From Deltaproteobacteria bacterium (GTDB lineage: Bacteria; Myxococcota_A; UBA9042), in the NCBI GenBank assembly GCA_020632665.1, contig JACKFC010000008.1, forward strand, positions 71,557-135,556: a DNA stretch of 64,000 nucleotides, read 5' to 3'. Of the stretch, positions 6,950 through 42,224 are shown piece after piece (position 1 is the first letter of the stretch; each line of letters opens with the position of its first letter). The position numbers and the translations under genes were made by a program. A model generated the notes under the pieces. The model worked only from the letters and a program-made list of their open reading frames with translations, had not been told where the DNA came from and did not search any database.

Positions 6950-8571
6950 GGCTCGGCCTGCGACGCCTGGAGGAAGCGGGTGTAGGCGCCGGCGTGCTCG
7001 CCTTCCTGCACCCGCTCGATGGCCATCACGAAGGCGACGCCGGAATCACGGGGTTCCGGCGTGCGGAGCAGCTTGCCGTGCAGGTAGACGGTACGCCAAA
7101 CGCCCTCGACCTCGATCGGCACGTTGAGCGTGAAGCGGGTCTCCATCGGTGGCGCGACGCGCGCCTCGACCTCCACGGCCAGGGTCGCTGCGCTGCGCAG
7201 CTTGGCCGGGACGAAGCGGCTATCGTGCTCGAAGGTGACGGGGATATCGACTTCGGCCGGCGTGTGGACACCGCTGTGGACGCCAGACACGTCGACGCCG
7301 ATGCCGGTGTCGAGTCGACCGCCGCGGCCGAAGATCTGCGAGCGCTCGAGGAAGGGCGAATCGTGCAGGCCGGAGGACGGCCGCGCCGGAGCTGCCTGCA
7401 GCTTGCCGCTCGGCATGCGGCGGACGTCCTGGCCCTCCGACGGCATCCGACGGATATCGGAGATCGGCCGCAGATCGTCGGTTGCGTAGGCGGAAGAGTT
7501 CGCCCGCGTGCGAGCGCCGCCCACCTCGGCGTCGAAGATCCCCGATCCGCTGCGGGCAGTCGATGAGCGCGGACGGCTCGGCGGCGCCGTCGGCTCGGCA
7601 TCGAAGACGCCCGAGACCTGCGCCGGATGGTCCGGATCGAAATGCCCCGAACCCGTCTGCCGCCGCGCTGCGCGCTCGGTCAAGATGTCCGAGGTCCGGC
7701 GCCCGACCACCCGGAGATCGTCGGACATGACGACGTCGCTGGTGCGACGGCGAGGCGGCGCTGTGCCGCTGCTGCGACTGTAGGTCGACCACTCGCCCGA
7801 GCGATCGCGCTCACCGCGTGGGGCGAATTCCGGGACGGCAACCGCTTCCGGCGGCGCGACCGAGACGTGGGTCATCTCCGGCGCCGGCGCGACCCGCGTC
7901 CCATCGGGCAACATCGCGTCGAAGGTCGGCGGCGTCGTCTCTGCGAACGCGTCGATCGCGTCCCCGTCGCCGACGATGACGGCGCCCGAGCTGCTCCCAG
8001 TCGGCGTCGTCGTCACCACCGAGGCCGCGCTCCGCCGTGGCAGTCCGGCGACCCGACTCGACGAGCTCCGTGAGCGCGGGCCGACGACCTCCTCACGGAT
8101 CATCCCCTCGCGCGGCAGCCCCGACGCGTTGCTGCGCTCGACCGCGCTGGCAGTAAAATCGAAGGCTCCGCCGACCGCCGGGAAGTCGAAGCGGACGCGG
8201 CGTCCGGTGCCGAGGCGCTCGGGCGTGATCCCGACGATGTGCAGCACCTTGCGCAGGACGTGGAAGATCGGCTCGCTGCCGGCCTCGGAATAGGCCCACA
8301 GCCAACGCACCGCGAATCCAGGTGGGTACGGGCCGCCGGGCGAGACGACCCGAACGACCTCGGCCCGCAGCTTCACCGGCGCGATCTTCGAGCCGATCGG
8401 GCGGACCAAGACGTCGACCTCGCGGCCCTCCGGCGCGTGGCGGAGCCCGGCGAAGAAGGCGCCGGTCGGGCCGATATCCGTGGTCACGGCGTTGATCTCA
8501 CCGTCAGGCAAGACCACACGGAGCGTCACGGTCTCCTTGCGGCGCGGATAGCTACGTCGGTCCTCGAACAT
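6946..8571 (-). CDS. PilZ-domain protein with long disordered linker and a second C-terminal PilZ-like domain
   Basis: N-terminal RSYPR (RxxxR) and DIGPTG motifs; C-terminal beta-rich segment VYLHGKLLR...FVMAI. Confidence 0.7.
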   Translation of the reverse strand: MFEDRRSYPRRKETVTLRVVLPDGEINAVTTDIGPTGAFFAGLRHAPEGREVDVLVRPIGSKIAPVKLRAEVVRVVSPGGPYPPGFAVRWLWAYSEAGSEPIFHVLRKVLHIVGITPERLGTGRRVRFDFPAVGGAFDFTASAVERSNASGLPREGMIREEVVGPRSRSSSSRVAGLPRRSAASVVTTTPTGSSSGAVIVGDGDAIDAFAETTPPTFDAMLPDGTRVAPAPEMTHVSVAPPEAVAVPEFAPRGERDRSGEWSTYSRSSGTAPPRRRTSDVVMSDDLRVVGRRTSDILTERAARRQTGSGHFDPDHPAQVSGVFDAEPTAPPSRPRSSTARSGSGIFDAEVGGARTRANSSAYATDDLRPISDIRRMPSEGQDVRRMPSGKLQAAPARPSSGLHDSPFLERSQIFGRGGRLDTGIGVDVSGVHSGVHTPAEVDIPVTFEHDSRFVPAKLRSAATLAVEVEARVAPPMETRFTLNVPIEVEGVWRTVYLHGKLLRTPEPRDSGVAFVMAIERVQEGEHAGAYTRFLQASQAEP

Positions 8572-9834: not shown

Positions 9835-12240
9835 CTAATTGCGGAGCGGCTTGCCGGTCTCGAGCATGTGGCGGATGCGGGCCTGCGTTTTTTCCAGGCC
9901 GCAGAGGTGCAGGAAGCCCTCACGCTCGATGTCGAGCAGGTCTTGCTCGCTGAGCAGGCCGCCCTTCTCGCCGCCGCAGAGCACCTTGGCGATCTGCGTG
10001 CCGACGATCTTGTCGTGCTCGCTCGCCAGACCCGACCAATGGAAGGCAGCCAGCGCCATCTCGAAGGCAGCGAGGCCCTCGGCGCCGGGCAGCAGCAGGT
10101 TGCTCGCCGGGCCGACGGGGCGGTAGCCGTCCTCGATCAGGCGCAGCGCGATCTTCTTCGCCTCGCCGATGCGACGGTCGGTGTCGATGCAGAACTTGTC
10201 GGTCGGCCGCAGGAAGCCCATCTCGAAGGCGTTGCCGGCGCCGGTCGCGACCTTCGCCATCGCCATCGCCTCGAACGCCTTCTGCAGCAGCGGCAGGCGG
10301 TCGACCTTGACGTCCGCCGGCACACCGGCGAGCGCGCGCACCGTCATCTCCTTGGTGCCACCGGCGCCCGGGATCAGGCCCACGCCGACCTCGACCAGGC
10401 CCATATAGGTCTCGGCGCCGACGACGGTGACGGCGCTGTGCATCGTGACTTCGCAGCCGCCGCCGAGCGCCATGCCGTGCGAGGCCGTGACGACCGGCAC
10501 TGGGCCGGTCTTGCAGCGCTGGGTGAAGCCCTGGAAGCGCTGCACCGAGGCCTCGAGCTGCTTCCACGCGCCCTGCATGATCGCGCCGCCGATCATCATC
10601 AGGTTGGCGCCGACCGAGAAGTTCGCGCCGTCGTTGGCGATGACCAGCGCGCCGTAGCGACCGGCCTCGCAGAGGTCGAGCGCCTTCTCGCCGAGCGTGA
10701 GGATATGCTCGTCGAGCGCGTTCATCTTGCTGGCGAAGGCGAGGCAGAGCACGCCATCGCCGAGGTCGAGCAGCTCGGCGCTCTCGTTGCGCTCGATCAC
10801 GCCGCCGGCGGCGCGGACGTCGGCCAGATCGATGCCGGGCAGCGGGGCGACCGGGGCCGCCTGCAGGCCGGCGGTCAGGCCGGTGCGGGCGCCGGGCGCG
10901 CCGCCGTAGAACGAGGTCTTGCCCTCGGCGAGCATGGTCTGCACCAGCTTCGGCACGGCGCGACCCTCGGCGCTGAGGCGATCGGCGACCTTCTGCACGC
11001 CGATGGCGTCCCAGATCTCGAACGGTCCGAGGGCCCAGTTGAAGCCCCAGCGCATGGCGCGGTCGACGCTGACGACGTCGTCGGCGATCTCGCCCATGCG
11101 GTTGGCAGCGTAGACCAGGCTCGACGAGGTCAGCGCCCAGGCGTAGTTGCCGGCCGCGTCGTCCGCGGCGCAGAGGTTGGCGATGCGCTGGCCGACGTCG
11201 GCGGTCTTGCGCGCCGCGCCGAGCGAGTCGGTGCGGAACTTGACCTGCTCGCGGTAATCCCCGGCGGCAGGGTCGAAGACCAGGATATTCTTGCCGACCT
11301 TCTTGTAGAAGCCGGCGCCGGCCTTGGCCCCCGTCGCGCCGGCGGCGACCAGCTTCTGGATCACCTCGGGCAGCGCGAAGACGTCGCGCTCCTCGTCGTG
11401 CGGCAGGTTGTCGTAGCAGTTGCGGGCGACGTGGCCGAAGGTGTCGAGGCCCACGACGTCGGCGGTGCGGAAGATGGCGGATTTCGGCCGGCCGAGCGCC
11501 TCACCGCAGATCGCGTCGATGGCCTCGATGCCGAGGTCGCTCTGCTGCCAGAGCTCGAGCGCCTTCATCATGCCGTGCACGCCGATGCGGTTGCCGATGA
11601 AGTTGATCGTGTCCTTGGCGATGACGACGCCCTTGCCGAGGTCGTCCTGGCAGAAGGCCGACATCTTCGCGGTCACAGCCGGATCGGTATCGGCGCCCGA
11701 GACGATCTCGAGCAGCTTCATGTAGCGCACCGGGTTGAAGAAGTGGGTGATCAGGAAGTGCTTGCGGAAGCCCTCGCTGCGCCCCTCGGCCATCGAAGCG
11801 AGCGGGATGCCGGAGGTATTGCTGCTGACGATGGTATGCGGCGCGCGGTGGGCGTCGATCTTGCTGAAGACCGCCTGCTTGATGTCGAGGCGCTCGACCA
11901 CCGCCTCGACGATCCAATCACAGGCGCCGAGTTCGGCGAGATCGTCTTCCAGGTTGCCGACGCTGATCAGCGCGAGATCCGAAGCCTTCTGGTAGATCGA
12001 GGGCTTGGACTTCGGCATCTTCCCGAGCGCACCAGCGGCGATCGCGTTGCGCCGACCACGGACGGCGGCGTACTCGGGCGCCTCGGCGTCGGCGGGCAGC
12101 GCCGGAGCGTCCTTCGGCACGATGTCGACCAGCAGGACGGGGACGCCCGCCGAGGCGAGGTGCGCGGCGATGCCGCTGCCCATCACGCCGGCGCCGATGA
12201 CGCCGACCTTGCCGATCCGCTTGTTCGGGGTGCTGCTCAT
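9835..12240 (-). CDS. 3-hydroxyacyl-CoA dehydrogenase / enoyl-CoA hydratase (FadN/FadB-type)
   Basis: GAGVMGSGIA Rossmann motif, SSNTSGIP, HFFNPVRYM, C-terminal crotonase GGGCE and GLVEVGVGLIP; adjacent to thiolase. Confidence 0.92.
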   Translation of the reverse strand: MSSTPNKRIGKVGVIGAGVMGSGIAAHLASAGVPVLLVDIVPKDAPALPADAEAPEYAAVRGRRNAIAAGALGKMPKSKPSIYQKASDLALISVGNLEDDLAELGACDWIVEAVVERLDIKQAVFSKIDAHRAPHTIVSSNTSGIPLASMAEGRSEGFRKHFLITHFFNPVRYMKLLEIVSGADTDPAVTAKMSAFCQDDLGKGVVIAKDTINFIGNRIGVHGMMKALELWQQSDLGIEAIDAICGEALGRPKSAIFRTADVVGLDTFGHVARNCYDNLPHDEERDVFALPEVIQKLVAAGATGAKAGAGFYKKVGKNILVFDPAAGDYREQVKFRTDSLGAARKTADVGQRIANLCAADDAAGNYAWALTSSSLVYAANRMGEIADDVVSVDRAMRWGFNWALGPFEIWDAIGVQKVADRLSAEGRAVPKLVQTMLAEGKTSFYGGAPGARTGLTAGLQAAPVAPLPGIDLADVRAAGGVIERNESAELLDLGDGVLCLAFASKMNALDEHILTLGEKALDLCEAGRYGALVIANDGANFSVGANLMMIGGAIMQGAWKQLEASVQRFQGFTQRCKTGPVPVVTASHGMALGGGCEVTMHSAVTVVGAETYMGLVEVGVGLIPGAGGTKEMTVRALAGVPADVKVDRLPLLQKAFEAMAMAKVATGAGNAFEMGFLRPTDKFCIDTDRRIGEAKKIALRLIEDGYRPVGPASNLLLPGAEGLAAFEMALAAFHWSGLASEHDKIVGTQIAKVLCGGEKGGLLSEQDLLDIEREGFLHLCGLEKTQARIRHMLETGKPLRN

Positions 12241-12351
12241 GCGAACTCCTGAAGCTGAGTGGGGTCGCCGACCGCTGCGGCGAGGGCGCGGAAGCTAGCG
12301 TGCGGGGCATCTGGTCGCAAGGTGGTGCAGATGCGGCGCGCGGTTGTGTCG

Positions 12352-12480
12352 ACCCCTCTCTGGCCCGCTGGGCCATCTCTCCCCGCTTAGCGGGGAGAGA
12401 GAAGCGTCTTCGATCCGCAGAGCTGTGCCGGCTTTCCCGTTCTCTCCCTGTTGGAGAGATGCCCGTAGGGCAGAGAGGGT
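12352..12480. repeat. Inverted pair of REP-like hairpin elements
   Basis: 12352-12400 ACCCCTCTCTGGCCC..GGGCCATCTCTCCCCGCTTAGCGGGGAGAGA versus reverse complement of 12441-12480 ACCCTCTCTGCCC..GGGCATCTCTCCAACAGGGAGAGA; perfect 11-bp stem at 12376-12400. Confidence 0.7.
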
Positions 12481-12549
12481 TTTACGGTACGGGAATACGG
12501 CGTGAGTCGGCGAAGGAGCGGTGATTGGCCGGATGCGCCGGGTCCATGC

Positions 12550-13119
12550 TCATTGGCAGATCTTCACCGAAAGGTGCCGATCGGGGGCATCGATCCACTC
12601 GTCTTCGGGCGCGACGAGGTCCTCGCCGCCCTGCCACTCGACGACGACCTCGATATCGTCCTTGCCGAACCTGCACCTGCCGGTCTCGGGGTCGAGATCG
12701 CAGGGGGTCGCGATGACGGTCAGCCGTCCGCGATCCCGGCAGATTCCATCCTTGAATTTTATGAGTGTCCCGGAGTGACGCCAAGCCTTGGGGTCCCACT
12801 CAGGGTAGTTGACGTAATCGCTGCGGCAGCTCATGTCAGAGCGGAAACTCCATGCTTTAGAAAGAACTCTCTTGGCCTCTGTCAAACTCTGTCCCGGGAG
12901 CGGCTCTTCGAAAATCTCGACTTCGTATCGTAGGTCAGCGATATCTCCTGGCAGATCATATGTGCTCGGACATCCACCGCAAATCTCCGCTGTCACAGTG
13001 AGATCGAGCCAGCATATTTCCGTTGGTTTCGCGTAACAGCCTTGCGCGCCTGAGACGAGGATCACGCTCGCCACTGCCAAATGCGCGGCTGCGCTACGCC
13101 ATCGTCGCGCGCTACTCAT
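12550..13119 (-). CDS. Hypothetical Cys-rich exported protein or lipoprotein (189 aa)
   Basis: Basic N-terminus plus hydrophobic stretch ending AQGC; start overlaps stop of upstream gene (ATGAGTAG); GGAGG upstream. Confidence 0.7.
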   Translation of the reverse strand: MSSARRWRSAAAHLAVASVILVSGAQGCYAKPTEICWLDLTVTAEICGGCPSTYDLPGDIADLRYEVEIFEEPLPGQSLTEAKRVLSKAWSFRSDMSCRSDYVNYPEWDPKAWRHSGTLIKFKDGICRDRGRLTVIATPCDLDPETGRCRFGKDDIEVVVEWQGGEDLVAPEDEWIDAPDRHLSVKICQ

Positions 13120-16100
13120 CGAGGCCGCCTCCCTCCGGCAAGGTGCTCATCCAGTGCGCTTTCGGCTTCGGCGGTGGCTCGGGCAGCTTCAATCCGACTG
13201 TCGACCCAGCATCCCGCGACACGCCGCCACCAACGACTTCGGTATCGTCCACCGCAGTGGGATCGGCGACGAACACGGTCTTGGTAGAAACCCTCGCGTA
13301 GCGCTCCTGCCAGCCCGCGCTCTTCGTGCTCTGGATCGGCAGTAGCAGCTCATGCAAGGGCCCCGGCCACGTTGCGGAGGAGGGTAGAGTGTATGCTGCG
13401 GTCAGTCTCTTACCGAGCAAGTCCAACCACGGTCCGAATTCTCCCCACTTGGCTGCGACGCTGGGGTCGAGCAACTCTGCCTGTGCACGGCGCACAAGAG
13501 CGAGCAGGTCACCGTAGGCGCTCACGTCCGCCGTCGTCGAAAACCATAGCAAGAGAGGCTCGGCCTGCGCTTCATCCAGGTACTGAGCAAGCTCTGAATC
13601 GCTAAGCTTCTTCCACGAACTCAACGCCTTGATGAGAGCACTCGACTCCTGCTCCGCGCGCAGCGTCGCGACGGGTGGGGACCCTCCACTCCCGGGAAGC
13701 AACTCCTTGGTCCATGCAACCTCACCGTCGGGAGGGAAGCCCGGCCACGTTGGCGCGGCGGCCATCGCAACCCGCAACGGCATCGTAGCAGGACCAGACG
13801 CTGCTCCGCGCCATGGAGGTTGCGCGATCTCCGAGGCCGCGCCGGTCCAAGAGCCGGGGATACCGCCAACTGCTGGGCCGTGGACCTCGGCGCGAATCGA
13901 TGCGAGCGCTTCGAGCCGGCGGGTTGTCACATGCACGCCGCCGGCCACGGCCTGCGACGTGACCGACACCACACCAGAAACCGGCTCGTGGACGAAATCC
14001 GAATCCGCCGACGCGTTCACCCCAACAATGACACTGCCGGCTGGTGCCGCCTTGGGCCACTTCGCCGGGGGAAGGGCGAGTTCGATCGAGAGGGCGTTGC
14101 CATCGATCGCGCGGAAGCGGGCGACGACAGGATCCAGCTCCGGCGAGACGCGTGCAACCGCTTGCAAGGAAGCCGCGATTTGCTCGTTGAGGCGTTCGGC
14201 GAGTTTCTTGGCCTCATCCTTGAGATCTTCCTCGACGAAATCGAGCACAGAGTAGCTATGTAAGTCCAGAGGAAAAGGCGCGTTCGGGCGGACACGTACG
14301 TCGGTAAAGACCACGGTAGCAAACTCGGGAGGCTTTTCGCCGTCCAACGGTCCCAGCGCCGGCTTCAACTCCGCGCATAGCGACACCTCCATCAACCCTT
14401 CGCCAGACAGCCCATCTCCAACTGGAAGCAAGACCAACTTGATGTTGATTTGGGCGCCGTCCAACCCCAGGTTCTGGACGGTCACCGCGTAGGCCCCATC
14501 TTGCACTGCCTCGCGCAGCGCGCCTTCGGATGCGAACGCATCCCGAAGCTGGCCCAGTGCTTTGGCGACTCCTGCCGCAGCGAGGATTGTGAGCGGCGGC
14601 ACCGCCAGTGCCAGTGCAATAACAACTACCAAACCGAGGGAAACACCAACGAAGAGCGCGATCGCAACCAACTCCTTCGCCGGGATATCGAGTTTAGCGA
14701 ACCACTCGCTCGCGGCGAACGTCACGTTGACGGCGAGCCACTCGAATGGGCTGTCTGCGAGCTTCTTCAAGGTCTTGTGAACGCGTTGCAGACCAGACTC
14801 TGCAGCAACCGGTTCACACACACAGTCCTTGTCGCCACCAGTCTTCTCTTCGGAAACCCCGGCCGCGGGCACTTCGGCCATGTTGCGCGGAAATTCCCAA
14901 ATCATCGTCTGCTCGATGATCGCGGCGAGATAGAAGCGACCGATGTCGACGACCAGCCCCTCCGCCATCGCCTCCGCTCCAACGGCCGGGCCACCCATGA
15001 TGGGGTCCAACTGCACGTTGTCCTGGCTCAGGCGGGCCAAGAATTCCTCCAGTTCAGCTTCGACCTCCGCTTGTCGCTCGCGCTCTGCGACGGCGCTGGC
15101 CGCGCCAAGGATGGCTTGTGCCGCTTGCGCGTTGACGCCTGGTGCCAACGTGGCGAGCGCTGTGGGATTGGCAAGCCAGCTCTGGAGTTGTGCGACGTAG
15201 GCTCCGAGTGTGGACGTTTGTGGATCTAGGGACTGCGCCCCGGTCAGCGTCTGCGCAACGGACGTCCCACCGTCGAAGACGTAGGAGAAGCCCCACCACC
15301 CAGCATCTCCTGCTGCGGTCGTCAGCCTGGAATTGCCCGTCGGAAACACCCTGAGCAACGTTCGAGCTTGGTCGTCGCTAATCCCGAGATCCGCGACGCC
15401 GAGTTCATCGACGCTCATGCCCTTGAAGCTCGGACCGATGCCTTGGAAGGCGTCGAATGCAGCGTGCCGCGTCAAACCGACCGCACGCAGCATCCCACCG
15501 GCGTTGCGGGCGGCGAAACTCTCCAGCAACGAGACGACGCCATACGCCGCAGGCAACCCCGCGGCCCGGCTGGCGAGAGCGCGCAGCGCCACCGTTCCCT
15601 CTTCCCAATCCGAAGCGGGCACGCCGCTCGGAGGTGCGGTTACCCAGCCTTCTGCGTCGGAAGCCTCTGCTTTCGCAGACGGCGTACCTCCTTGGTGGAA
15701 CAGATCGACGGCCAGTTGGCTGGTCCAAACCGACCGACAGAACGATCGCCACGTCACGGCGGGGCCGAGTTCGACGCTCCCCGGACCCACTTGGTCGATC
15801 TTGCCGATGGTGTTGGCTTTGAGTCCGCCCGTTACCTCATGCACGCCGTCCATCCCGAGCCCGATGTCAAGCACCAGCCCGCTCGGAATGAACTCATCGC
15901 TGCCAACGCTCATAAGTGCGCCCTGCGGGGACGTGATCCATGCATCGCTGGCCAACGTTTGCGCGGCGTCGAGCAAGGGTATGGATGCAAGCAAGTTCAG
16001 CATCACTTCGAGCCCCAGCGGCGCAACGGTTGCCGCTTGGAATCGAGAGCTTGCCAAAACCCTGTCTGCTCGCCAACGGGAATCGATCAACCCAGAAGCA

Positions 16101-16405
16101 GCCCACGCACGATGGCACAGCAGCTCCGAACCCTTAATCTGGAACGAGAGATCCAACGGCAAGAGCTGGAAGGTTGAGTCCCCCGGTGTCGGCAGCAGAT
16201 CGCTCGTCGGATCTGCAAGCAGCGGAGCCGCTCCAGCGAACAGCAACTGGACTACGACGCTCGGCACGCCCTGCTTGCTGAGAAGATCACTCGCGGTCGG
16301 ATCGCTCTGGGCAAGGGCGCGGGCAAGTGAGGCGAGTCCGGCCGGAGACCACCGAACCCGCAGGTCGAACCGCCGCACCATGCCGGCTTCGCCGATGAGG
16401 ATCAT
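13112..16405 (-). CDS. Hypothetical 1097-aa protein with central hydrophobic segment
   Basis: 3.3-kb open frame in lower-GC DNA; ATGA overlap with upstream ORF; no recognisable family motif. Confidence 0.8.
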   Translation of the reverse strand: MILIGEAGMVRRFDLRVRWSPAGLASLARALAQSDPTASDLLSKQGVPSVVVQLLFAGAAPLLADPTSDLLPTPGDSTFQLLPLDLSFQIKGSELLCHRAWAASGLIDSRWRADRVLASSRFQAATVAPLGLEVMLNLLASIPLLDAAQTLASDAWITSPQGALMSVGSDEFIPSGLVLDIGLGMDGVHEVTGGLKANTIGKIDQVGPGSVELGPAVTWRSFCRSVWTSQLAVDLFHQGGTPSAKAEASDAEGWVTAPPSGVPASDWEEGTVALRALASRAAGLPAAYGVVSLLESFAARNAGGMLRAVGLTRHAAFDAFQGIGPSFKGMSVDELGVADLGISDDQARTLLRVFPTGNSRLTTAAGDAGWWGFSYVFDGGTSVAQTLTGAQSLDPQTSTLGAYVAQLQSWLANPTALATLAPGVNAQAAQAILGAASAVAERERQAEVEAELEEFLARLSQDNVQLDPIMGGPAVGAEAMAEGLVVDIGRFYLAAIIEQTMIWEFPRNMAEVPAAGVSEEKTGGDKDCVCEPVAAESGLQRVHKTLKKLADSPFEWLAVNVTFAASEWFAKLDIPAKELVAIALFVGVSLGLVVVIALALAVPPLTILAAAGVAKALGQLRDAFASEGALREAVQDGAYAVTVQNLGLDGAQINIKLVLLPVGDGLSGEGLMEVSLCAELKPALGPLDGEKPPEFATVVFTDVRVRPNAPFPLDLHSYSVLDFVEEDLKDEAKKLAERLNEQIAASLQAVARVSPELDPVVARFRAIDGNALSIELALPPAKWPKAAPAGSVIVGVNASADSDFVHEPVSGVVSVTSQAVAGGVHVTTRRLEALASIRAEVHGPAVGGIPGSWTGAASEIAQPPWRGAASGPATMPLRVAMAAAPTWPGFPPDGEVAWTKELLPGSGGSPPVATLRAEQESSALIKALSSWKKLSDSELAQYLDEAQAEPLLLWFSTTADVSAYGDLLALVRRAQAELLDPSVAAKWGEFGPWLDLLGKRLTAAYTLPSSATWPGPLHELLLPIQSTKSAGWQERYARVSTKTVFVADPTAVDDTEVVGGGVSRDAGSTVGLKLPEPPPKPKAHWMSTLPEGGGLDE

Positions 16406-16707
16406 CGTGGTCCGTCGCGCCTGGGATGGGGACGACTCCTACCGTCCCACCCAACCAGCATCTTCCCGATTTGTGCAGCCCAACGATCGGGCTTCGCCCC
16501 ATCGCCGCTGATTCGTACTCCCAGCGAGGCGGGCCCAGGCGAATCTGCATGCACCCTGGCGCTATCCGTGCGGGAAGTTGGAGAGACTGAAGTCATCGGC
16601 GCTCGAGCGCTAAGAACCGACCCGAGCGAAGCAGCATCGGCCCGAACGATCTCCACTTCGGGGCTGCCGATGATGACCTGACCATCACGCCGCGGTTCCG
16701 CGCTCAT
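16402..16707 (-). CDS. Hypothetical protein (101 aa)
   Basis: ATG at 16707 overlaps the TGA of the upstream gene; its TGA (16404-16402) overlaps the ATG of the 1097-aa gene. Confidence 0.6.
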   Translation of the reverse strand: MSAEPRRDGQVIIGSPEVEIVRADAASLGSVLSARAPMTSVSPTSRTDSARVHADSPGPASLGVRISGDGAKPDRWAAQIGKMLVGWDGRSRPHPRRDGPR

Positions 16708-17207
16708 CGACGCACCGTAGCAATCCGGGGCTGCGCTTGGCGGGGAAATGAAACGACGGGTCGGCCAGCGAGGCGTTCGTACCGAGCTAACGCTACCCAC
16801 GCACGGATTTGCACCATCGCGGCATCGCCCCCCGCACTCGCAGCATTGGTCAGGGTTAAGCGACCAACGCCGCCGGCATCCAGATTCGTCGCATCTTCAC
16901 GGCCCAAGACGATCTGCGCCACTGTCACCACATCGCGCGGCAGATCGATGAGGCTGCCAAGGGCAGAGCCGAACCGATCGTCACCGGGACCGTTGATGTT
17001 CGTGCGCTCGATGTCCAAGGAAACTTCGGGTGGATTGGTCGCGTGAAGGCCGAGCACCCGCGCTTGCACGGTGATCAACGCCTGATTGTAGGCGTCGAAG
17101 TTGATGTAGTTCTCCGGCGGGCATGCCCACCAGTTGGCGTAGGCGCTGTCTGACGCATCATCCAGCGTAACCGTTACGTCCAGCCAGAGTTTGGGTGTAT
17201 TTGACAT
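16704..17207 (-). CDS. Hypothetical protein, paralog 3 of tandem trio (167 aa)
   Basis: ATG at 17207 preceded by GGAGGAG; shares motifs with the two upstream ORFs. Confidence 0.8.
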   Translation of the reverse strand: MSNTPKLWLDVTVTLDDASDSAYANWWACPPENYINFDAYNQALITVQARVLGLHATNPPEVSLDIERTNINGPGDDRFGSALGSLIDLPRDVVTVAQIVLGREDATNLDAGGVGRLTLTNAASAGGDAAMVQIRAWVALARYERLAGRPVVSFPRQAQPRIATVRR

Positions 17208-17221
17208 ATGCTCCTCCATCG

Positions 17222-17668
17222 CTAGCCTCGCACCAATGCAACCGAGCAGCGCAGCCACACGACAGCCCATTCCGTTGCCGCGCCGGCGTTTTGCGCGATC
17301 AGCCGGCCGATGCCGCGGGGCAACTTGCGGATCGTACCGGCGGCCCCTGACATGTTTTGGTCCAAGCCGTAGCTGGCAGAAACGACGCCGGCGCCAGCCG
17401 CCGTTCCGGATGGCAAGAGCCAGGACGTCGTTGCGGTTGGCTCCATCGACTCGAACGCCGCTTCGAGCTCGACGCGGGCGGCGGACCGCTGCATGCCGAC
17501 TCTGACCGAAGCTGCGCCCGGCCCGGCCAAGCTGTATTCGAGCGTCAGGTAGGCTTGGTCGGCTTCCCCGAAGTCGAGAAAGTCATGCGGGGCCATCGTC
17601 CAGACGTCCACTGCAGTATTCGAAGCTCCAACGAATACAAGGCCTTCGTACCAGACAAATGACTTCAT
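17222..17668 (-). CDS. Hypothetical protein, paralog 2 of tandem trio (148 aa)
   Basis: RBS AGGAGTGAGG before ATG; shared motifs with both neighbours. Confidence 0.8.
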   Translation of the reverse strand: MKSFVWYEGLVFVGASNTAVDVWTMAPHDFLDFGEADQAYLTLEYSLAGPGAASVRVGMQRSAARVELEAAFESMEPTATTSWLLPSGTAAGAGVVSASYGLDQNMSGAAGTIRKLPRGIGRLIAQNAGAATEWAVVWLRCSVALVRG

Positions 17669-17693
17669 GACCTCACTCCTGTCGAGGCGATTC

Positions 17694-18128
17694 CTAGTTG
17701 GTGATCACGTGCGCCCGCACTCGGATCGCAGCCCACTCACCAGCGCTAAAGCTCGCGGCACTGAGTTCCGTGCGCAAGCGCCCCAGCGGAAAACTCCATC
17801 CGTCCACGCCGAGCCCACCGCCGCTGCCCAGAACAAGGCCCTCGACGCTTTGACCACGCGTCAACGTCATCGATCCAGATCCACCCGTGGTGACGATGTC
17901 GGCCCAGAGGTCTTCGTCGGCAGAGGGAGCTGCTGTGCGCTGCACTTTCAAGCTCGTCTTGGTCGCGCCCGGTCCGACACCAGTGACCTCGAACTCGAGC
18001 GTCGCCGACTCCACTTCGTCGAATGCCAGCCAATGGCTCGGCGGCAGGGTCCACGAAGTTGCTGCTCCCTCGTAGAAGAAGACCCAGAGATCATGCCACA
18101 GCCGGCGCTGTGCTCGACGCGTAGTCAT
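17694..18128 (-). CDS. Hypothetical protein, paralog 1 of tandem trio (144 aa)
   Basis: RBS GAGGAGG before ATG; shared motifs with the downstream ORFs. Confidence 0.8.
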   Translation of the reverse strand: MTTRRAQRRLWHDLWVFFYEGAATSWTLPPSHWLAFDEVESATLEFEVTGVGPGATKTSLKVQRTAAPSADEDLWADIVTTGGSGSMTLTRGQSVEGLVLGSGGGLGVDGWSFPLGRLRTELSAASFSAGEWAAIRVRAHVITN

Positions 18129-18169
18129 GTCACCTCCTCGGCACTCAACGTTTAGTAGGTGGCAGTGAA

Positions 18170-18235
18170 GCAGATTCTACCCCCCCCGTCAACAACAATA
18201 TTTCATTTTATAATCATGTTGTTATGCAGTAAGCT
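18170..18235. promoter_or_regulatory. AT-rich upstream region of the island operon with 7-bp inverted repeat
   Basis: AACAACA (18191-18197) / TGTTGTT (18217-18223) flanking a 19-bp very AT-rich spacer; -10-like TAAAAT and TAGAAT on the minus strand. Confidence 0.5.
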
Positions 18236-18359
18236 GGGGGCGTCTGGCGAAAAAGGGAGAGATGCATCGCACCGCCCTTCGACGGAGATATCGAGAACCC
18301 ACGGCTCGCGGCCGACACCGAACTCTCAACGCATCTTTGGCAAGCCCGCTCGCTCTAGG

Positions 18360-20334
18360 CTCGACTTTAGCGGTTTTCCAGGCGGCGACCAGCCAAGGCC
18401 CTTGTGTACGGTCGGCATCGCGGCGCCGCGACGCGGACAGCGATCAACGGTGATGCTCGGGTTCGACGCCTTGCGTCGAAGCAGAGCTGTTGGGCGCCCG
18501 AGTTCGCGAGGGCGACTTGCTGCAGATCCCGACCGCTGCAGTGCGAGCTAGGGTCGTCAGCAGGCAGGCACACATCTTGAGGAGATCGTTACGTCTTGCG
18601 GGCCGCCGTCGACGGCCACGGCCGTCGACGGCGGCCGTCACCGTTGCGGCAGTGGGTTGTTTCCTGCCCGCACGACTCGGTGTTGCTGAACATGGTCGCG
18701 GGCTCAGATCGACGGCCAAAGAACTTGGAGAGGCACGGGGAAGCCCCCAAGATCGGGTTGCTAACATCGTCACCAAGGAGTTCCCCGTGCCCGACGTCCT
18801 TCTTACCGCGTCGTTCGTCGCTTTGCTATCGCAACTGCGCCCTGTCTTCACTGCGCCTTCGTTCGCCAACTTCGTCGTGCTGCTCGCCGGCATGGTCCAC
18901 GCGCTCGGCGCGCATAGGCTTACCGACGCGCTACGCGCGGCCGGTCCTGCTGCCGAGCGACACTTCACGAGCTACTATCGGTTCTTGTCGCACGCGCAGT
19001 GGTCGCTCGACGAGTTGGGCCTGGCCCTGCTCGCGTTGATCGAACAAGTGTTGTCGTTGCCGGAACTCGAGCTGATCGTCGATGACACGCTCTGCCGCCG
19101 CAGCGGCAAGAAGGTCGCGCTAGCAACGATGCACGCCGACCCTCTGCTCAAGCAAGGCGGTCGGCCTTTCCATAGCTACGGCCACGTGTTCGTCGTGCTT
19201 GCGGTTCATGTGCGGCTACCTTTGCTGGCGCCGACAGGGTGGGCGCTGCCCGTCATGTTCCGGCTGTTCGAAGGGCCGCGCCAAGGCGGGCGCAAAGACG
19301 CAGCGTCCGATGCGCGGCGTCGCAAGCTGCGCCGCGACAAGGACCTGCCCACGCGCAACCGCGTTCGCAAGACCGACCGCAAAGTCGTCGATGGTAGGGT
19401 CGAGCAATGCGCTCCCGAGCCCGATAGCGGACCGTTGCCCAAGGAGTTGCACCGCACCAAGACCCAGCTCGCCGCTGAGTTGATCCTCGCGGTCGCGCGT
19501 CGATTTCCACACTTGCGCATCCGAGTTCTGGCCGACCATCTCTACAACTGCAACGCAGTGCTGAACGAGGTGCTTCGCGAAGTCGACAACGTCAACTTCG
19601 TCACCCGCGGTCGCCCCGATGCGGCGCTGTTCGCCATGCCAGAGCCGCGCAAGCCCGGCCAACGCGGCCGACCCGCCATCAAAGGCGAGCAGCTGCCCAA
19701 CCCCAAACAGTGGGCCGACGAGCACGCCGACGACTTCGAACGGCACGTCGTGCCCATGTACGGACGCGACGTCACGGTCAGGGTGGCAAGCTACCTCGGT
19801 ATGGCCTACCGCTCGCTACCGGGGCGGTTGGTCCGCTACGTCATCGTCATCGACCCAGCCGGCATCTACCGAACCGACTACCTACTATGCACAGACCTGG
19901 AGCTATCGGTCGCAGAAGTCGTCGCCGCCTACAGCCGCCGCTGGCCGCTCGAGCAAACCTTCGAGTGCTGCAAGCAGAAGCTCGGGATGCAGGATACACA
20001 GGTCCAGATGCCGGCAGCGGTCCGACGCCACGCGCCGCTGTCGATGCTGCTCTACAGCCTCGTCGTGCTCTGGTACCTGCAGCACGGCCACCAACTCACC
20101 AACTACGCCCGGCTACCAGCCGACCCATGGTACAAGGGCAACCCGCGGCCGAGCTTCACCAACATGCTCGCGTGCTTACGGCGAGCGAGCTGGGGCGAAG
20201 CATTTGTGGATCCACCGTTGCCCGGCACGGGAGCGACTGAAAATCAGCCGCCGACGACCCGCGATCGGCGGCCGCAACTCGCCCGCTACCTGTCGCGGGT
20301 CGTCGCCGCGGGTTGAAGATGCGCTAAAGTCGAG
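18360..20334 (+). mobile_element. Insertion sequence, IS701-like, 1975 bp
   Basis: Perfect 13-bp terminal inverted repeats CTCGACTTTAGCG (18360-18372) / CGCTAAAGTCGAG (20322-20334); direct repeats TCTAGG at 18354-18359 and 20335-20340. Confidence 0.92.
18787..20316 (+). CDS. DDE transposase (IS701-like)
   Basis: GTG start after AAGGAG; DDE-type motifs LIVDDTL, VLADHLY, YSRRWPLEQTFECCKQKLG. Confidence 0.88.
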   Translation: MPDVLLTASFVALLSQLRPVFTAPSFANFVVLLAGMVHALGAHRLTDALRAAGPAAERHFTSYYRFLSHAQWSLDELGLALLALIEQVLSLPELELIVDDTLCRRSGKKVALATMHADPLLKQGGRPFHSYGHVFVVLAVHVRLPLLAPTGWALPVMFRLFEGPRQGGRKDAASDARRRKLRRDKDLPTRNRVRKTDRKVVDGRVEQCAPEPDSGPLPKELHRTKTQLAAELILAVARRFPHLRIRVLADHLYNCNAVLNEVLREVDNVNFVTRGRPDAALFAMPEPRKPGQRGRPAIKGEQLPNPKQWADEHADDFERHVVPMYGRDVTVRVASYLGMAYRSLPGRLVRYVIVIDPAGIYRTDYLLCTDLELSVAEVVAAYSRRWPLEQTFECCKQKLGMQDTQVQMPAAVRRHAPLSMLLYSLVVLWYLQHGHQLTNYARLPADPWYKGNPRPSFTNMLACLRRASWGEAFVDPPLPGTGATENQPPTTRDRRPQLARYLSRVVAAG

Positions 20335-20335
20335 T

Positions 20336-23300
20336 CTAGGGCGCCGAACCAAGCACCGTCTCGAAGCTCTTCACCGGCGAGCTGCCGTGCCCCAACCCGA
20401 GCCGGGAAGCCGTGTTCAGCCCACAGCAGCGGACCTCGCCGGTCTGGAGCACGATGCAGGTCGTATTCACTCCCATCGCGACCTGCTCGACCTTGTCGAC
20501 GCCCGTCACCTTCATCGGCACCGTCGAGTCGAAGGTGTCGCCGGTCCCCATCTGGCCGTTGGAGTTCTGCCCCCAGCAGCGCAACGTATGGTCCTGCAGC
20601 ACAGCGCAGGTGGTGTGCATCGCCGCGTCGACCTGCGCCACCTTGCTGATATCGTAGACCGCGACCGGGCTGCCCGCGTTCTTCTTGCTGCCGTCGCCGA
20701 GTTGGCCGTAGCCGTTGTAGCCCCAGCATTTCAGGTCGCCGGCCTTGTCGACGGCGCAGCAATGCGCATGACCGCAGGTGAGGTCGACCGTGTCGACCAG
20801 CCCCGCGACGAGCTGCGGCTTGATCTCGGTCACGTTGCTCTCGCTGCCCTGCCCCAACGTCGCGGCGGAATTGTTGCCCCAGCACGCCACCTTGCCGTCG
20901 ACCAGCCGGACGCAGGTGGCGTATTCGCCGACGGCGACCTGGGCGACCTTGCCCGGCATGTCGGCAACCAGCGTCGGCTCGACCACGTTGCTGCTGCCGG
21001 CTTGGCCGAGGGCGCTGTAAGTGTTGCGGCCCCAGCAGCGCACCGCGCCTTCGGTGTCGACCGCGCAGTTGCGGCTGTGGTGGACGTCGATCGACGCGGT
21101 ATTGGGTGCCTTGAGCACGAATTCCGGCACGAAATAGAGCCCCGAACTGGTGCCGAGGCCAATCTGGCCATTGCTGTTGTAGCCCCAGCACCAGGTCTTG
21201 CCGCTGGTGTCGAAGCCACAGCCGTGGTTGCCACCCACCCGTGCGTCGACCATATCCTTGATCTTCTGGGCGGTTTGCAGGGTTCCGGGCGGGTTGACAC
21301 TGCCGTTGACGCCGCAACCACCGTTGCCGCACGCGCCCCAGGCGTGGACCAGGCCGGATGTTCCGACCGCCAAGCCATTGGTATCGCCCATGCTCACACG
21401 CACGGCGAAGCGCTTGGCGCAGACCCCGGCGATGCAGGCCTTCTCGTCGCCGCACGGGGTCAGGTCGGCCAGCGCCGGGTAGACACAGCCCGCCTTGCCG
21501 TCGCAGGTGTTGGCCGTGCACGGGTTGTTGTCGTCGCAGGTGGTCTTCGGACCGGCCTTGCAGGTGCCGCCGACGCACGAGTCGCCGGTCGTGCAGGCGT
21601 CGCCGTCCTCGCAGGCCGAGGTATTGTCGATATGGGTGCAGCCGAGCTTGCCGTCGCAGCCGTCGTTGGTGCACGGGTTGCCGTCGTCGCAGGCGCCGGC
21701 GCTCTTGCCGAAGCAGATGCCGGCGCTGTCGCAGGTGTCGTGGCCGTAGGGGTCGAAGCGCCAGACCGCAACCTTGGGCGCACCGACGCCGCCGTTGCCG
21801 TCGCCGACGCCGAGCAGCGCGGGCCCATCGACGACCAGATCGATCAGCGATTCGTAGCCAGCGCCGCTGCGCTGCTGCTTCCACAGCGTCAGACCGGTCG
21901 CGTCGACCGCGATCGCCGAGAGGTCGCCGCCCAGGCTCCCGGGCGTCCCGCCCGCGAGGACCCAACCCTTGCCGTGCGGCAAGATCCGCCACGGCCGCAG
22001 CGCCTCGCTCTTGTGCACCTGCCAGAGCTCCTTGCCCGCCGCATCGAGCCGGACCAACGAGAGCAGCGGCGCCCCGCCCTCCATCCGCGTCCCGGCAGCC
22101 AACGCACCACCATCGGGGGTCGCCGCAGCGACGCGCAGCTCACGGGCCACGGCTTGGCCGACCACCAACTCGCCGAGCCAGGTCGCGGTGACGGCCTTGT
22201 TGCCGTCGAAGAAGGTCGCGGCGAAGCGGCTGCTGTTGGCCGTCGTGGTCCAGCCGCGACCGACCAGGATCGCGCCGCCCTTCGCCAACGCGGCGACGCC
22301 GTAGCCGGACCGCACCGTGCCGCCGTCATAGGCCTGCCAGCCGAGTGAGCCATTCGCCGCGATGCGGAAGAGCGCGCCGTTGTTGCCCTGGCTGCCTGCC
22401 GCGTAGACGCCGCCGACGCCGTCGGACGCGGCGTCGTTGATCCAGGTCGCCGGCGGCGAGAGCGGGCCCGGGTCGACCAGCTTCGACTTGCCGTCGGCCG
22501 AGAGCACCACGTGCCGCAGCACCCGAGCGTTGCCAATCTGCGCATGACCCGTGAGCGTGATCGTGCTGCCAGCCGAGATGTAGCGGATGAAGCCATTCGC
22601 CAGCCCGGAGAGCGCGACCTGCGGCCAGCCCGGCGCGACCGCGCCAGTCTTGGTCAGCCGCCAGACGACCCACTCCTGGCTGCCATCGCCCGCGACCCGC
22701 ACGCCGGCAACCATCGCGCCGTCGGCGATCGGCGTCACCACGTGACCCCACGTCGCCTTGTCGCCTTCGCCGAACTCGGTGTGAAAGAGCGTGTCGGCTC
22801 CGCCGCCGACGCAAGCCCCGCTCTTGCACTTCGCGCCGACCTTGCACGCCGCGCCGTCGGCGCACTCCGAGCCGTCGGGCGCCGCGACCAGCACGCAGGT
22901 AAACGTCACAGCGCCCGTGCTGACGCATTTCGGCACGTCGCAGGCTCCGCCTTCTTTATCGCACTTCGGCGCCGGCCCAGCGACGCAGGCGCCGTCTTGG
23001 CAGGTATCACCGACCGTGCAGGCGTCGTCGTCGGCGTTGCAGCTCTTGCCGACGTAGCTCGACTTATCCGCCACGCAGGTGCCGGTCTTGGCGTCGCAGA
23101 CGTCGAGCGTGCAGGCGTTGCCGTCGTCGCAGCCCTTCGTCGTGTGGCTGCAGCCGGTCTTGGGGTCGCAGGCGTCGAGCGTGCAGGCCTTGCCGTCGTC
23201 GCAGTCGAGCGCGCTGCCCTTGCAGGCGCCGCCGGCGCAGGCGTCGCTGCTGGTGCAGACCGTGCCGTCGTCACAGACGGTGCCGTCCTTGACGGGCTGC

Positions 23301-25366: not shown

Positions 25367-25436
25367 CGAATGCTCCCGAAAACCACCAACGCAACCAGCC
25401 ACGTCGGCGGTCATCGTGGCGCATTCCCGGGTCTCG

Positions 25437-27879: not shown

Positions 27880-29072
27880 GCGTCCGGCTCCTCGGCAGCC
27901 TCGGCGCTGGCGCCGCGGGCGGGGAGGAAATCGTCGCGGTGGACCAGCTCGCGCGCCGGCAGCCAGCCGAGACGTTCGGCGATCGCGGCGCTGCGCAGGC
28001 CGGCGACGGCGGCGGCGTCTTCGCTGGCGTAGCGGCACAGCCCACGGCCGAGCAGGGTGCCGTCGGGTCCGACGATGCGGACCGCGTCGCCGACACCGAA
28101 GCGACCTTCGACCCGACGCACCCCGACCGGCAGCAGCGAGCGACCTTGCAGCAGCAGGGCCCGCGCCGCGCCGGCGTCGAGGTGCAGGGTGCCGCGGGTG
28201 CGAACCGAGGTGGCGAGCCATTTGCGGCGCGCGCTGAGCCGGCTGCGGCCGGGGAGGAAGAGGGTGCCTTCGGCCTCGCCGGCGAGCACCCGCGCCAGCA
28301 CGCCCGGCCGCGTGCCGTGGGCGACGACGGTGGGGATGCCGACCGCGGCGGCCTTGCCGGCGGCGAGGACCTTGCTGCGCATGCCGCCGGTGCCGAGGTC
28401 GGAGCGTCCGCCGCTGGCGGTGTAGGCGAGCGCGTCGGGATCGTCGGCTGTGAGGGCGGTGATCTGCCGGGCGGTGGGTTCGTGGCGCGGGTCGGCGTCG
28501 TAGAGGCCGTCGACCTCGGTCAGCAGCACCAACACATCGGCGCCGATCGCCGCCGCGACCTGTGCCGCGAGCGCGTCGTTGTCGCCGAAGCGCAGCTCCT
28601 CGATCGCGATGGTGTCGTTCTCGTTGACGATCGGCAGCGCCCCGGCGGCGAGGAGTTCGGCCGTGACCCGGCGCGCGTGCAGGAAGCGACCGCGATCGCC
28701 GAGATCACCGTGGGTCAGCAGCAGCTGGGCGACCTTCAGCCCGTGCGCCGAAAAGGCGGCCCGCCAGCGGTCCATCAGCAGGGGCTGGCCGATCGCGGCG
28801 AGCGCCTGCTTGCCGAAGCGCGGCGCGGGATCGTTGGGTGGCTGGCCGGCCTCACCGCGGCCGAGGCCGACCGCGCCCGACGAGACGAGGACCACCTCGC
28901 GGCCGTCGGCGATCGCTGCGGCGATCGCCGCGGCGTGCAGCGCGAACGCCTCTTCCCGCGGCGCGTAGCCGTCGCCGCAGAGCACGGCCGAGCCGAGCTT
29001 GACCACGACGCGACGGGCGCGACGCAGGCCGGCACGGGCGTCGGCGATGGCAGCGGTGGAGGGCGCGGCCAT
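27876..29072 (-). CDS. proB: Glutamate 5-kinase with PUA domain
   Basis: VVVKLGSA, VSSGAV, IVNENDT, FGDNDALA, GTGGMRSK, C-terminal PUA domain. Confidence 0.95.
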   Translation of the reverse strand: MAAPSTAAIADARAGLRRARRVVVKLGSAVLCGDGYAPREEAFALHAAAIAAAIADGREVVLVSSGAVGLGRGEAGQPPNDPAPRFGKQALAAIGQPLLMDRWRAAFSAHGLKVAQLLLTHGDLGDRGRFLHARRVTAELLAAGALPIVNENDTIAIEELRFGDNDALAAQVAAAIGADVLVLLTEVDGLYDADPRHEPTARQITALTADDPDALAYTASGGRSDLGTGGMRSKVLAAGKAAAVGIPTVVAHGTRPGVLARVLAGEAEGTLFLPGRSRLSARRKWLATSVRTRGTLHLDAGAARALLLQGRSLLPVGVRRVEGRFGVGDAVRIVGPDGTLLGRGLCRYASEDAAAVAGLRSAAIAERLGWLPARELVHRDDFLPARGASAEAAEEPDA

Positions 29073-42105: not shown

Positions 42106-42224
42106 CCTGATCGCTGCGTCATGGCGCGTTGCCGCTTTCTGACAGCGATGTCATGATCGGGGCAGCTTGGCGATCGCCGCGTCAACGCGCCAAGGTTCTG
42201 AAAAGTCTGACGTTTGGGGGGGGA

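Follow-up and report, generated by a model that had tools for sequence, protein, structure and literature searches.

A horizontally acquired six-gene operon with a conserved jelly-roll trio and an exchangeable, candidate effector-immunity back end

Organization and foreign origin of the operon

We analyzed a stretch of 64,000 nucleotides (the window) of contig JACKFC010000008.1 from the Deltaproteobacteria bacterium assembly GCA_020632665.1, which carries six co-oriented open reading frames (ORFs), g1 to g6, on the minus strand between positions 12550 and 18128 (Table 1). This operon appears to be a member of a mobile, lineage-restricted family of cassettes that combine a conserved front end with an exchangeable back end. 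The sizes and strand of the six ORFs, and their linkage by strong ribosome-binding sites or overlapping start and stop codons, were as described in the initial annotation of this DNA. Ribosome-binding sites of the GGAGG type precede g1, g2, g3 and g6, g4 and g5 each begin within an ATGA shared with the stop codon of the gene before, and g6 starts inside the last 8 nt of g5. An alternative ATG for g3, at 17270, would give a protein of 188 aa. The g5 frame is far longer than expected by chance at the local base composition. The g4 frame is open for only ~133 codons, and its G+C content by codon position (0.69/0.63/0.60) is atypical. Since g4 also lacks a homolog, it is a probable rather than a certain gene, translationally coupled at both ends despite its weak coding signal.

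The operon is of foreign origin. The G+C content (GC) is 62.7% in the island containing the operon versus 70.5% in the rest of the window, and GC at third codon positions is 0.60 to 0.75 in the operon versus 0.90 to 0.94 in its native neighbors, namely, a 3-hydroxyacyl-CoA dehydrogenase/enoyl-CoA hydratase gene and a giant Dicty_CTDC/RCC1 gene. The G+C counts that had been quoted for two 60-nt segments (31/60 at 12841-12900 and 48/60 at 28141-28200) were exact on recounting. In genome G001, which belongs to the same genus, window positions 9835-12303 (91.7% identity) are joined to window positions 20337-20863 with ~70 bp between them, position 20337 at this junction being where the giant Cys-rich/RCC1 gene has its stop codon. 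G001 therefore carries the empty site, and the DNA that it lacks, roughly 12360-20336, corresponds to the 6.0-kb operon island plus an insertion sequence (IS) of the IS701 family, indicating that the operon and the IS were inserted, in agreement with the horizontal acquisition initially proposed. The island holds only the six genes, and no phage genes surround it. Neither an integrase nor direct repeats flanking the operon island were found when looked for.

Comparison of the six proteins with Pfam, NCBIfam, PADLOC and PHROGs revealed no match apart from two chance-level hits far under the cut-off, so the earlier remark that no known family could be recognized was upheld. The qualification of the operon as an orphan holds for g4 to g6; it does not hold for g1 to g3, which belong to a small but real protein family.

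Table 1. Features of the operon, its island and its surroundings
Feature	Position	Strand	Size	Remarks
g1	17694..18128	-	144 aa	Jelly-roll family, paralog A; ribosome-binding site GAGGAGG
g2	17222..17668	-	148 aa	Jelly-roll family, paralog B; ribosome-binding site AGGAG
g3	16704..17207	-	167 aa	Jelly-roll family, paralog C, basic C-terminal tail; ribosome-binding site GGAGGAG before ATG at 17207
g4	16402..16707	-	101 aa	Small, probable linker protein, rich in Arg, Ser, Ala, Gly and Pro; ATGA overlap at either end
g5	13112..16405	-	1097 aa	Variable cargo protein, without signal peptide; start in ATGA overlap
Predicted hydrophobic helical hairpin of g5	14552..14671	-		Residues 579-618, two spans around a Pro-Pro turn
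g6	12550..13119	-	189 aa, 9 Cys	Predicted exported Cys-rich protein, probable lipoprotein; ribosome-binding site GGAGGGAGG
Foreign island with the six-gene operon	12360..18340	-		From empty-site comparison and GC; boundaries approximate to ~20 nt
Two REP-like hairpins	12369..12490			Downstream of g6, likely operon end
Leader/promoter region	18180..18240	-		AT-rich stretch, inverted repeat, then TTGACG and G8
IS701-family insertion sequence	18354..20340	+		Between operon leader and stop codon of giant Cys-rich/RCC1 gene
Giant Cys-rich gene, window	20336-25414			
Giant Cys-rich gene, L002	3388-6180			
Giant Cys-rich genes, L007	883-6288, 14930-17782			
Giant Cys-rich gene, L043	527-5239			
Giant Cys-rich gene, L047	14-2434			

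The first three genes encode an undescribed jelly-roll family

The products of g1, g2 and g3 (the trio) are 30 to 34% identical to one another. Searching 1.84 billion representative proteins with a trio profile gave 46 matches at E ≤ 1e-3, including two-domain fusions, and none of 33 family members matched Pfam. The trio profile gave only chance-level hits among PDB sequences, as did g5 and g6. AlphaFold2 modeling of g1 with a 33-sequence alignment returned, with confidence, an eight-strand jelly-roll β-sandwich (predicted local distance difference test [pLDDT] score, 88.2; predicted template modeling [pTM] score, 0.81). The best Foldseek E values obtained with this fold were 6.4e-3 in the PDB (template modeling [TM] score of ~0.5, root mean square deviation of ~10 Å) and 6e-4 among viral structures. 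The matches, all weak, comprised capsid proteins of picornaviruses, nodaviruses and circular Rep-encoding single-stranded DNA (CRESS) viruses, CBM4, Ena2A and Cry11 domains, the gingipain adhesin domain, small uncharacterized phage proteins, and tail-fiber or tip-attachment domains. They are generic, and we take them as an assignment to a fold class only. The ratio of nonsynonymous to synonymous substitution rates was 0.04 to 0.26 in the family and 0.11 to 0.14 for g2. Thus, the trio represents a real, undescribed protein family under purifying selection.

Relatives of the trio were found in 8 of the 28 sampled genomes of the family to which the window is assigned in GTDB and in none of the 373 genomes sampled elsewhere in the phylum (401 genomes altogether). 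The genome of the window (G000) harbors three loci: besides the operon described here, contig C8 has another trio and contig C13 has a locus with a single family member, designated D-type. A search for related loci with a B-type alignment returned three, and a scan with a single protein returned none. No match to g2 was obtained by tblastn in 50,697 phage and 72,556 plasmid records, no relative was found among IMG/VR viral contigs scanned with the trio alignment, and full-text searches of the literature returned no description of such a system.

Relatives of the trio occupy the corresponding positions at two other loci, L010 and L052, with identities of 62 to 65% for g1, 70 to 71% for g2 and 63 to 72% for g3. 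The second-position genes of the C8 locus and of an orthologous locus in G001 are 42 to 45% identical to g2, and the trio proteins of these two loci are 81 to 92% identical to each other. Throughout, the paralogs form three separate orthogroups, A, B and C, arranged in a constant A-B-C order (clade support of 100/99 for B and 96/85 for C), and two-domain fusions occur at L007 (298 aa) and L044 (351 aa) and in protein P0004. The three paralogous subunits that had been proposed thus correspond to ancient orthogroups, sometimes fused. According to the initial annotation, its proposal would fail if homologs never co-occurred in other genomes; homologs of the trio do co-occur there, in the same order. 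Because these ancient paralogs are non-redundant, keep a fixed order and are joined in Rosetta-stone fusions, we infer that A, B and C assemble into a hetero-oligomer.

Another family copy, the second at L043 (G006:C142), is pseudogenized between positions 8019 and 10708 of that locus, its fragments (8019-8393 and 10448-10708) being separated by an inserted gene for a 406-aa P-loop ATPase-like protein.

Exchange of cargo and exported partner between loci

Behind the trio, the loci share an order rather than a set of genes: a linker slot, a cargo of 373 to 1097 aa, and a Cys-rich protein usually carrying a lipobox. The cargoes lack signal peptides and their partners are predicted to be exported, such a Cys-rich protein or lipoprotein following the cargo in all loci readable as far as their end. 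The linker slot is occupied at L004, L007, L010 and L046 by non-homologous ORFs of 69 to 287 aa, and in C8 its ORF is joined to that of the cargo; the ORFs found in this slot are rich in Arg, Ala, Ser, Gly and Pro and are probably disordered.

In the window, the cargo is g5. It has no homolog in 60 related genomes. A search of a 5.8-billion-cluster protein collection, word-seeded and of low sensitivity, detected no homolog of g5 or g6, which is weak evidence for g5 since at most 100 sampled words were used. The large membrane-interacting protein announced in the initial annotation is supported by a predicted hydrophobic hairpin (19-residue Kyte-Doolittle mean of up to 2.95), apart from which g5 displays no recognizable feature and no recognized toxin domain. 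The exported Cys-rich partner that had been assigned to the last gene is likewise borne out, since g6 begins with a basic region and a hydrophobic core followed by a cysteine (…LVSGAQG-C), as predicted for an export signal with a probable lipobox.

Two sets of loci document the replacement of the back end. The C8 locus and the orthologous locus of G001 have conserved the upstream gene, the trio (79.5% nucleotide identity over 1582 bp) and a downstream gene encoding a helix-turn-helix (HTH) protein. Between trio and HTH gene, C8 has 1965 bp that encode a 422-aa protein and a 205-aa lipoprotein, and G001 has 2700 bp that encode proteins of 69, 643 and 149 aa; the two segments show no nucleotide or protein similarity. 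The window trio is 62 to 72% identical to those of L010 and L052, yet g4 to g6 are unrelated to the cargo of these loci, which is common to both. Together, these comparisons indicate that cargo and exported partner are replaced wholesale between loci whose trios are 62 to 92% identical, in keeping with the effector-immunity-like gene order noted at the outset.

No similarity was detected among the cargo proteins, whether N-terminal or C-terminal. The 422-aa cargo of C8 contains TNAHV and GGMSGAS motifs and gave subthreshold matches to Trypsin_2, Trypsin and MarP. The 373-aa cargo of L007 contains HEYGHALGFMDEY, and a 425-aa relative at C8 (33% identity) contains HEVGHMLGLRDEY; both have the pattern HExxHxxGxxDEY and matched M6 weakly. 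The cargo of L043 (709 aa, 32 Cys) carries a rhodanese domain.

Cargoes are kept rather than swapped at the D-type loci (G000 C13:58509-66571, corresponding to L003:8509-16571; L045; L049), which have a single family member each. There, two paralogous cargoes of 768 to 927 aa (30% identity), of a family maintained across genomes, are each followed by a large Cys-rich lipoprotein ending in a MopE-like metal-binding motif.

The C8-type trio locus is also flanked, on the opposite strand, by a gene encoding 234 to 240 aa (L002:5922-6644 and L004:7920-8624; 63% identity). This neighbor of the C8 and G001 loci, at 240 aa, was considered as a transposase of the tyrosine type associated with repetitive extragenic palindromic (REP) sequences; this assignment was withdrawn because it matched neither Pfam nor PHROGs.

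Leader, flanking elements and genomic neighborhood

The leader of the operon contains an AT-rich stretch (18188-18240) with a 7-bp inverted repeat (AACAACA/TGTTGTT), and a TTGACG motif directly followed by a tract of eight G residues at 18180-18187 (motif and tract together, 18180-18193, minus strand). A TTGAC(A/G) motif immediately followed by a G8, G10 or G11 tract is kept upstream of the three orthologous trios, that is, in the window, at ~1120-1150 of L010 and at ~7480-7510 of L052. Runs of at least eight G or C residues are strongly avoided in the genome, with 24 occurrences versus ~1400 expected under independence. The conservation of the motif and tract, together with the genome-wide avoidance of such runs, suggests slipped-strand phase variation, making the leader a candidate phase-variable promoter. 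A scan for sigma-70 promoters and terminators returned nothing above shuffle expectation. One more of the 24 runs, also a G8, lies in the window at 42216-42223 (gacgtttGGGGGGGGaatgacgg).

The flanks of the operon conform to the early description of REP-like hairpins on one side and an AT-rich region plus an IS on the other. The hairpins are considered REP-like because their half-motifs are dispersed throughout the genome, with 138 copies of TCTCTCCCCGC and 156 copies of GCCCGTAGGGC. The IS encodes a DDE_5 (IS701-type) transposase (E = 2.6e-26). Its terminal inverted repeats (18351-18387, 20307-20343) are bordered by TCTAGG. It is a separate insertion, outside the cassette system.

On contig C8, the trio cassette abuts a tailed prophage of ~30 kb with a GC of 64% (G000 C8:58000-88000; L002, L061, L062). 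The prophage encodes a large terminase, a head protein (family match, "major head and protease protein"), a serine integrase, a Peptidase_M15_3 endolysin, and tail- or baseplate-like proteins. It is flanked by cassettes on both sides, of the trio type on the left and of a trio-less type on the right. The latter, at the far prophage end (G000 C8:85628-87779; L062:8628-10779, minus strand), consists of genes for the 425-aa metalloprotease-like protein mentioned above, a 139-aa Cys-rich lipoprotein and a 168-aa protein. The 168-aa protein is 44% identical to a 246-aa protein trailing the cargo of L007, and a further relative is encoded by a 121-aa ORF after the trio of L044. Since the metalloprotease-lipoprotein module is also found without a trio, the back end would be an independent mobile unit.

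Giant genes for Cys-rich repeat lipoproteins of the Dicty_CTDC type adjoin the trio loci of the window, C8, L007 (two genes), L043 and L047. Only ~35 such genes are present in the 4.8-Mb genome, and they lie beside trio loci far above the expected frequency. The C-terminal Cys-rich modules of the lipoproteins that close the D-type loci recur in other giant proteins. The empty site of G001 indicates that the giant gene is independent of the operon; the association may thus reflect either insertion hot spots or a functional link.

Proposed function and alternatives

Judged from sequence, the cassette family most likely serves bacterial antagonism. We assign a probability of roughly 0.45 to the reading of the operon as a mobile cassette of the effector-immunity-like type in which a novel trio is the carrier. 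According to this model, three non-redundant jelly-roll paralogs would form the front end, and a small disordered linker, a signal-less cargo and its cognate exported Cys-rich protein or lipoprotein would form the back end. The constant pairing of a signal-less cargo with an exported, disulfide-rich partner suggests that both meet in the envelope. The cargo would be an envelope-acting effector, represented in the window by the 1097-aa protein with its putative membrane-inserting hairpin and elsewhere by proteins with serine-protease-like or HExxH metalloprotease motifs. The exported Cys-rich protein would be the inhibitor or immunity factor of the producer, located in the periplasm or outer membrane. 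The trio would form a complex that carries or targets the cargo, binding to it (perhaps via the linker) and accompanying its release, which could occur by lysis or by another Sec-independent route. Toxicity, immunity, the release route and the hetero-oligomer are inferred, as are the roles of structural subunit, adaptor and toxin given in the initial annotation.

Several observations weigh against this model. No secretion apparatus is linked to the cassettes. TssC (PF05943), the sheath protein of type VI secretion systems (T6SSs), was absent from 37 of 37 genomes of the family and was detected in the E. coli control, so that dependence on a T6SS is excluded. Neither g5 nor g6 has a homolog or a recognized domain, the protease-like matches of other cargoes lie under curated cut-offs, and the rhodanese domain of the L043 cargo does not readily suggest a toxin. 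Unlike classical polymorphic toxins, the cargoes have no conserved N-terminal region for trafficking in common, and the trio-less metalloprotease cassette implies that a cargo does not strictly need an adjacent trio. The association with giant genes, together with the membership of some terminal lipoproteins in the same superfamily, could also mean a surface-anchoring role.

This last point leads to the most probable of the alternatives, although we regard it as unlikely. The operon would encode a surface-enzyme module rather than a weapon, with the lipoprotein as surface anchor or substrate, the trio as a cytoplasmic chaperone or assembly factor, and the cargo (a protease, a rhodanese-containing protein or a membrane protein) maturing or decorating abundant Cys-rich surface proteins. 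Such a role would fit the proximity of trio loci to giant Cys-rich genes despite the small number of these genes, the modules that the D-type terminal lipoproteins share with giant proteins, and the sulfur or redox function expected of the rhodanese domain. It is difficult to reconcile with G001, in which the giant gene is intact without the operon, and with the patchy distribution of the family, even among the 28 genomes of its own lineage. The wholesale swap of non-homologous cargo behind near-identical trios is, moreover, typical of conflict systems and not of housekeeping maturation.

Conflict of another kind, namely, anti-phage defense, appears rather improbable. Here, the trio would detect infection in the cytoplasm and switch on an exchangeable effector of abortive infection, which would be a protease or a membrane-disrupting hairpin protein. 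The absence of signal peptides from both trio and cargo would be in order for such a system, as would the combination of a conserved module with exchangeable protease or transmembrane effectors, the patchy distribution, the location in low-GC islets beside a prophage or an IS, and the possibly phase-variable promoter. It leaves without a role, however, the exported disulfide-rich lipoprotein, which changes along with the effector and is found in all complete loci. In addition, no nucleotide-binding or other sensor-type domain was found, and no model of PADLOC-DB 2.0 was matched by the six window proteins at E ≤ 1 or by ten cargo and linker proteins of other loci at E ≤ 0.1.

Another view of the trio itself starts from pseudo-T=3 capsids, which are built from three paralogous jelly-roll subunits. 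By analogy, the trio might co-assemble into a capsid-like shell or carrier particle packaging the signal-less cargo, with the small basic and disordered protein as an internal linker and with exit by lysis or in vesicles, and expression of such particles might be phase variable through the G tract of the promoter. We consider this decidedly unlikely. If true, it would amount to something categorically new, a jelly-roll nanoparticle delivering proteins, which would give bacteria a new route of delivery and would be their first compartment built from jelly-rolls. The trio was also considered as the capsid of the C8 prophage and rejected for this role, since the prophage encodes a terminase and a head protein of its own, and the trio genes are on the other strand, outside the structural module.

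Finally, it is very unlikely that the operon is a phage-derived accessory set or decaying foreign DNA, the trio being a remnant structural or receptor-binding module riding prophages: the C8 locus does abut a prophage, small phage proteins and tail-fiber or tip-attachment domains are among the best viral Foldseek matches, and L043 contains an interrupted pseudogene, but the C8 trio is not part of the prophage structural module, no phage genes surround the window copy, no relative was found in the phage records with g2 or in the viral contigs with the trio alignment, and both purifying selection and the intact coupling of translation speak against decay.

If the effector-immunity-like reading is correct, the jelly-roll trio, which is in no curated library, would be a new conserved module organizing exchangeable effector-partner cassettes, and would do so without any known secretion system. 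This would imply a new way of handling signal-less envelope-acting proteins, together with novel cargoes and cognate inhibitors. The hosts are uncultured Myxococcota-like bacteria of a lineage thought to be predatory. The system is compact, with three proteins of ~150 aa and a cargo pair, and the natural A-B fusions and cargo swaps provide built-in controls.

Comparison with known systems

The cassettes share several properties with polymorphic toxin-immunity systems, which were defined by comparative genomics (PMC3482391). A conserved front end is combined with a back end replaced by recombination, as seen in the exchange of variable modules between conserved loci for C8 and G001 and for the window, L010 and L052. 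A partner gene is located immediately downstream of the variable protein and co-varies with it, as observed here for the exported protein and its cargo. Association with mobile elements and the presence of several loci per genome are further common traits. In polymorphic toxins, a conserved trafficking protein bears an exchangeable toxin tip at its C terminus, whereas here the whole cargo is swapped. The loci have no scaffold of the Rhs, CdiA, LXG or a similar type, known toxin domains were not detected above threshold, and the constant part consists of three free-standing jelly-roll proteins encoded by separate genes.

Periplasm-acting effectors of T6SSs (Tse/Tsi-type pairs) combine a signal-less effector with a lipoprotein or periplasmic immunity protein. 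The cassettes resemble them in pairing a signal-less cargo with an exported partner, which would imply action in the envelope after delivery from the outside. The locus differs in having no Hcp, VgrG or PAAR gene, and the trio adopts a jelly-roll fold rather than the Hcp barrel.

Colicins and S-type pyocins are bacteriocins released by lysis, in which a cytoplasmic signal-less toxin is accompanied by a cognate protective protein. A signal-less cargo as candidate toxin, a protective-partner layout and carriage on mobile DNA are also found here, as in accessory genes at prophage ends, and one locus adjoins a phage lysis gene. Unlike in bacteriocins, no lysis gene is present in the window island, no layout of receptor-binding, translocation and killing domains is recognizable, and the putative protective protein is predicted to be exported instead of being bound to the toxin in the cytoplasm.

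The SitA/SitI toxins exchanged between myxobacterial outer membranes are lipoproteins that bear their toxin domain at the C terminus, and the gene for a cytoplasmic immunity protein comes next (PMC5562445). In contrast, the probable lipoprotein of the present operon is the product of the last gene, a small Cys-rich protein in which no toxin domain is present, and the large protein has no lipobox.

Other jelly-roll modules that occur free or after cleavage and join enzymes or build fibers, namely, the cleaved-adhesin domain of gingipains, CBM4, Ena2A of Bacillus and single jelly-roll capsid proteins, have the eight-strand β-sandwich in common with the trio, at the level of weak Foldseek matches. 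The likeness to gingipains extends to the combination of a protease with several paralogous jelly-roll domains. Unlike these modules, the trio has neither sequence similarity to them nor signal peptides. Ena2A is a weak fold match only (Foldseek E = 1.2e-2), and the trio differs from Ena proteins (DUF3992) in the lack of any Pfam match and of a conserved cysteine connector (no Cys in g1, one in g2). It differs from single jelly-roll viral capsids in having no specific structural similarity to them, no replication or packaging genes and no PHROGs hits. The logic of the cassettes is known from polymorphic effector-partner systems; the conserved trio module that heads them is an undescribed family without a linked apparatus.

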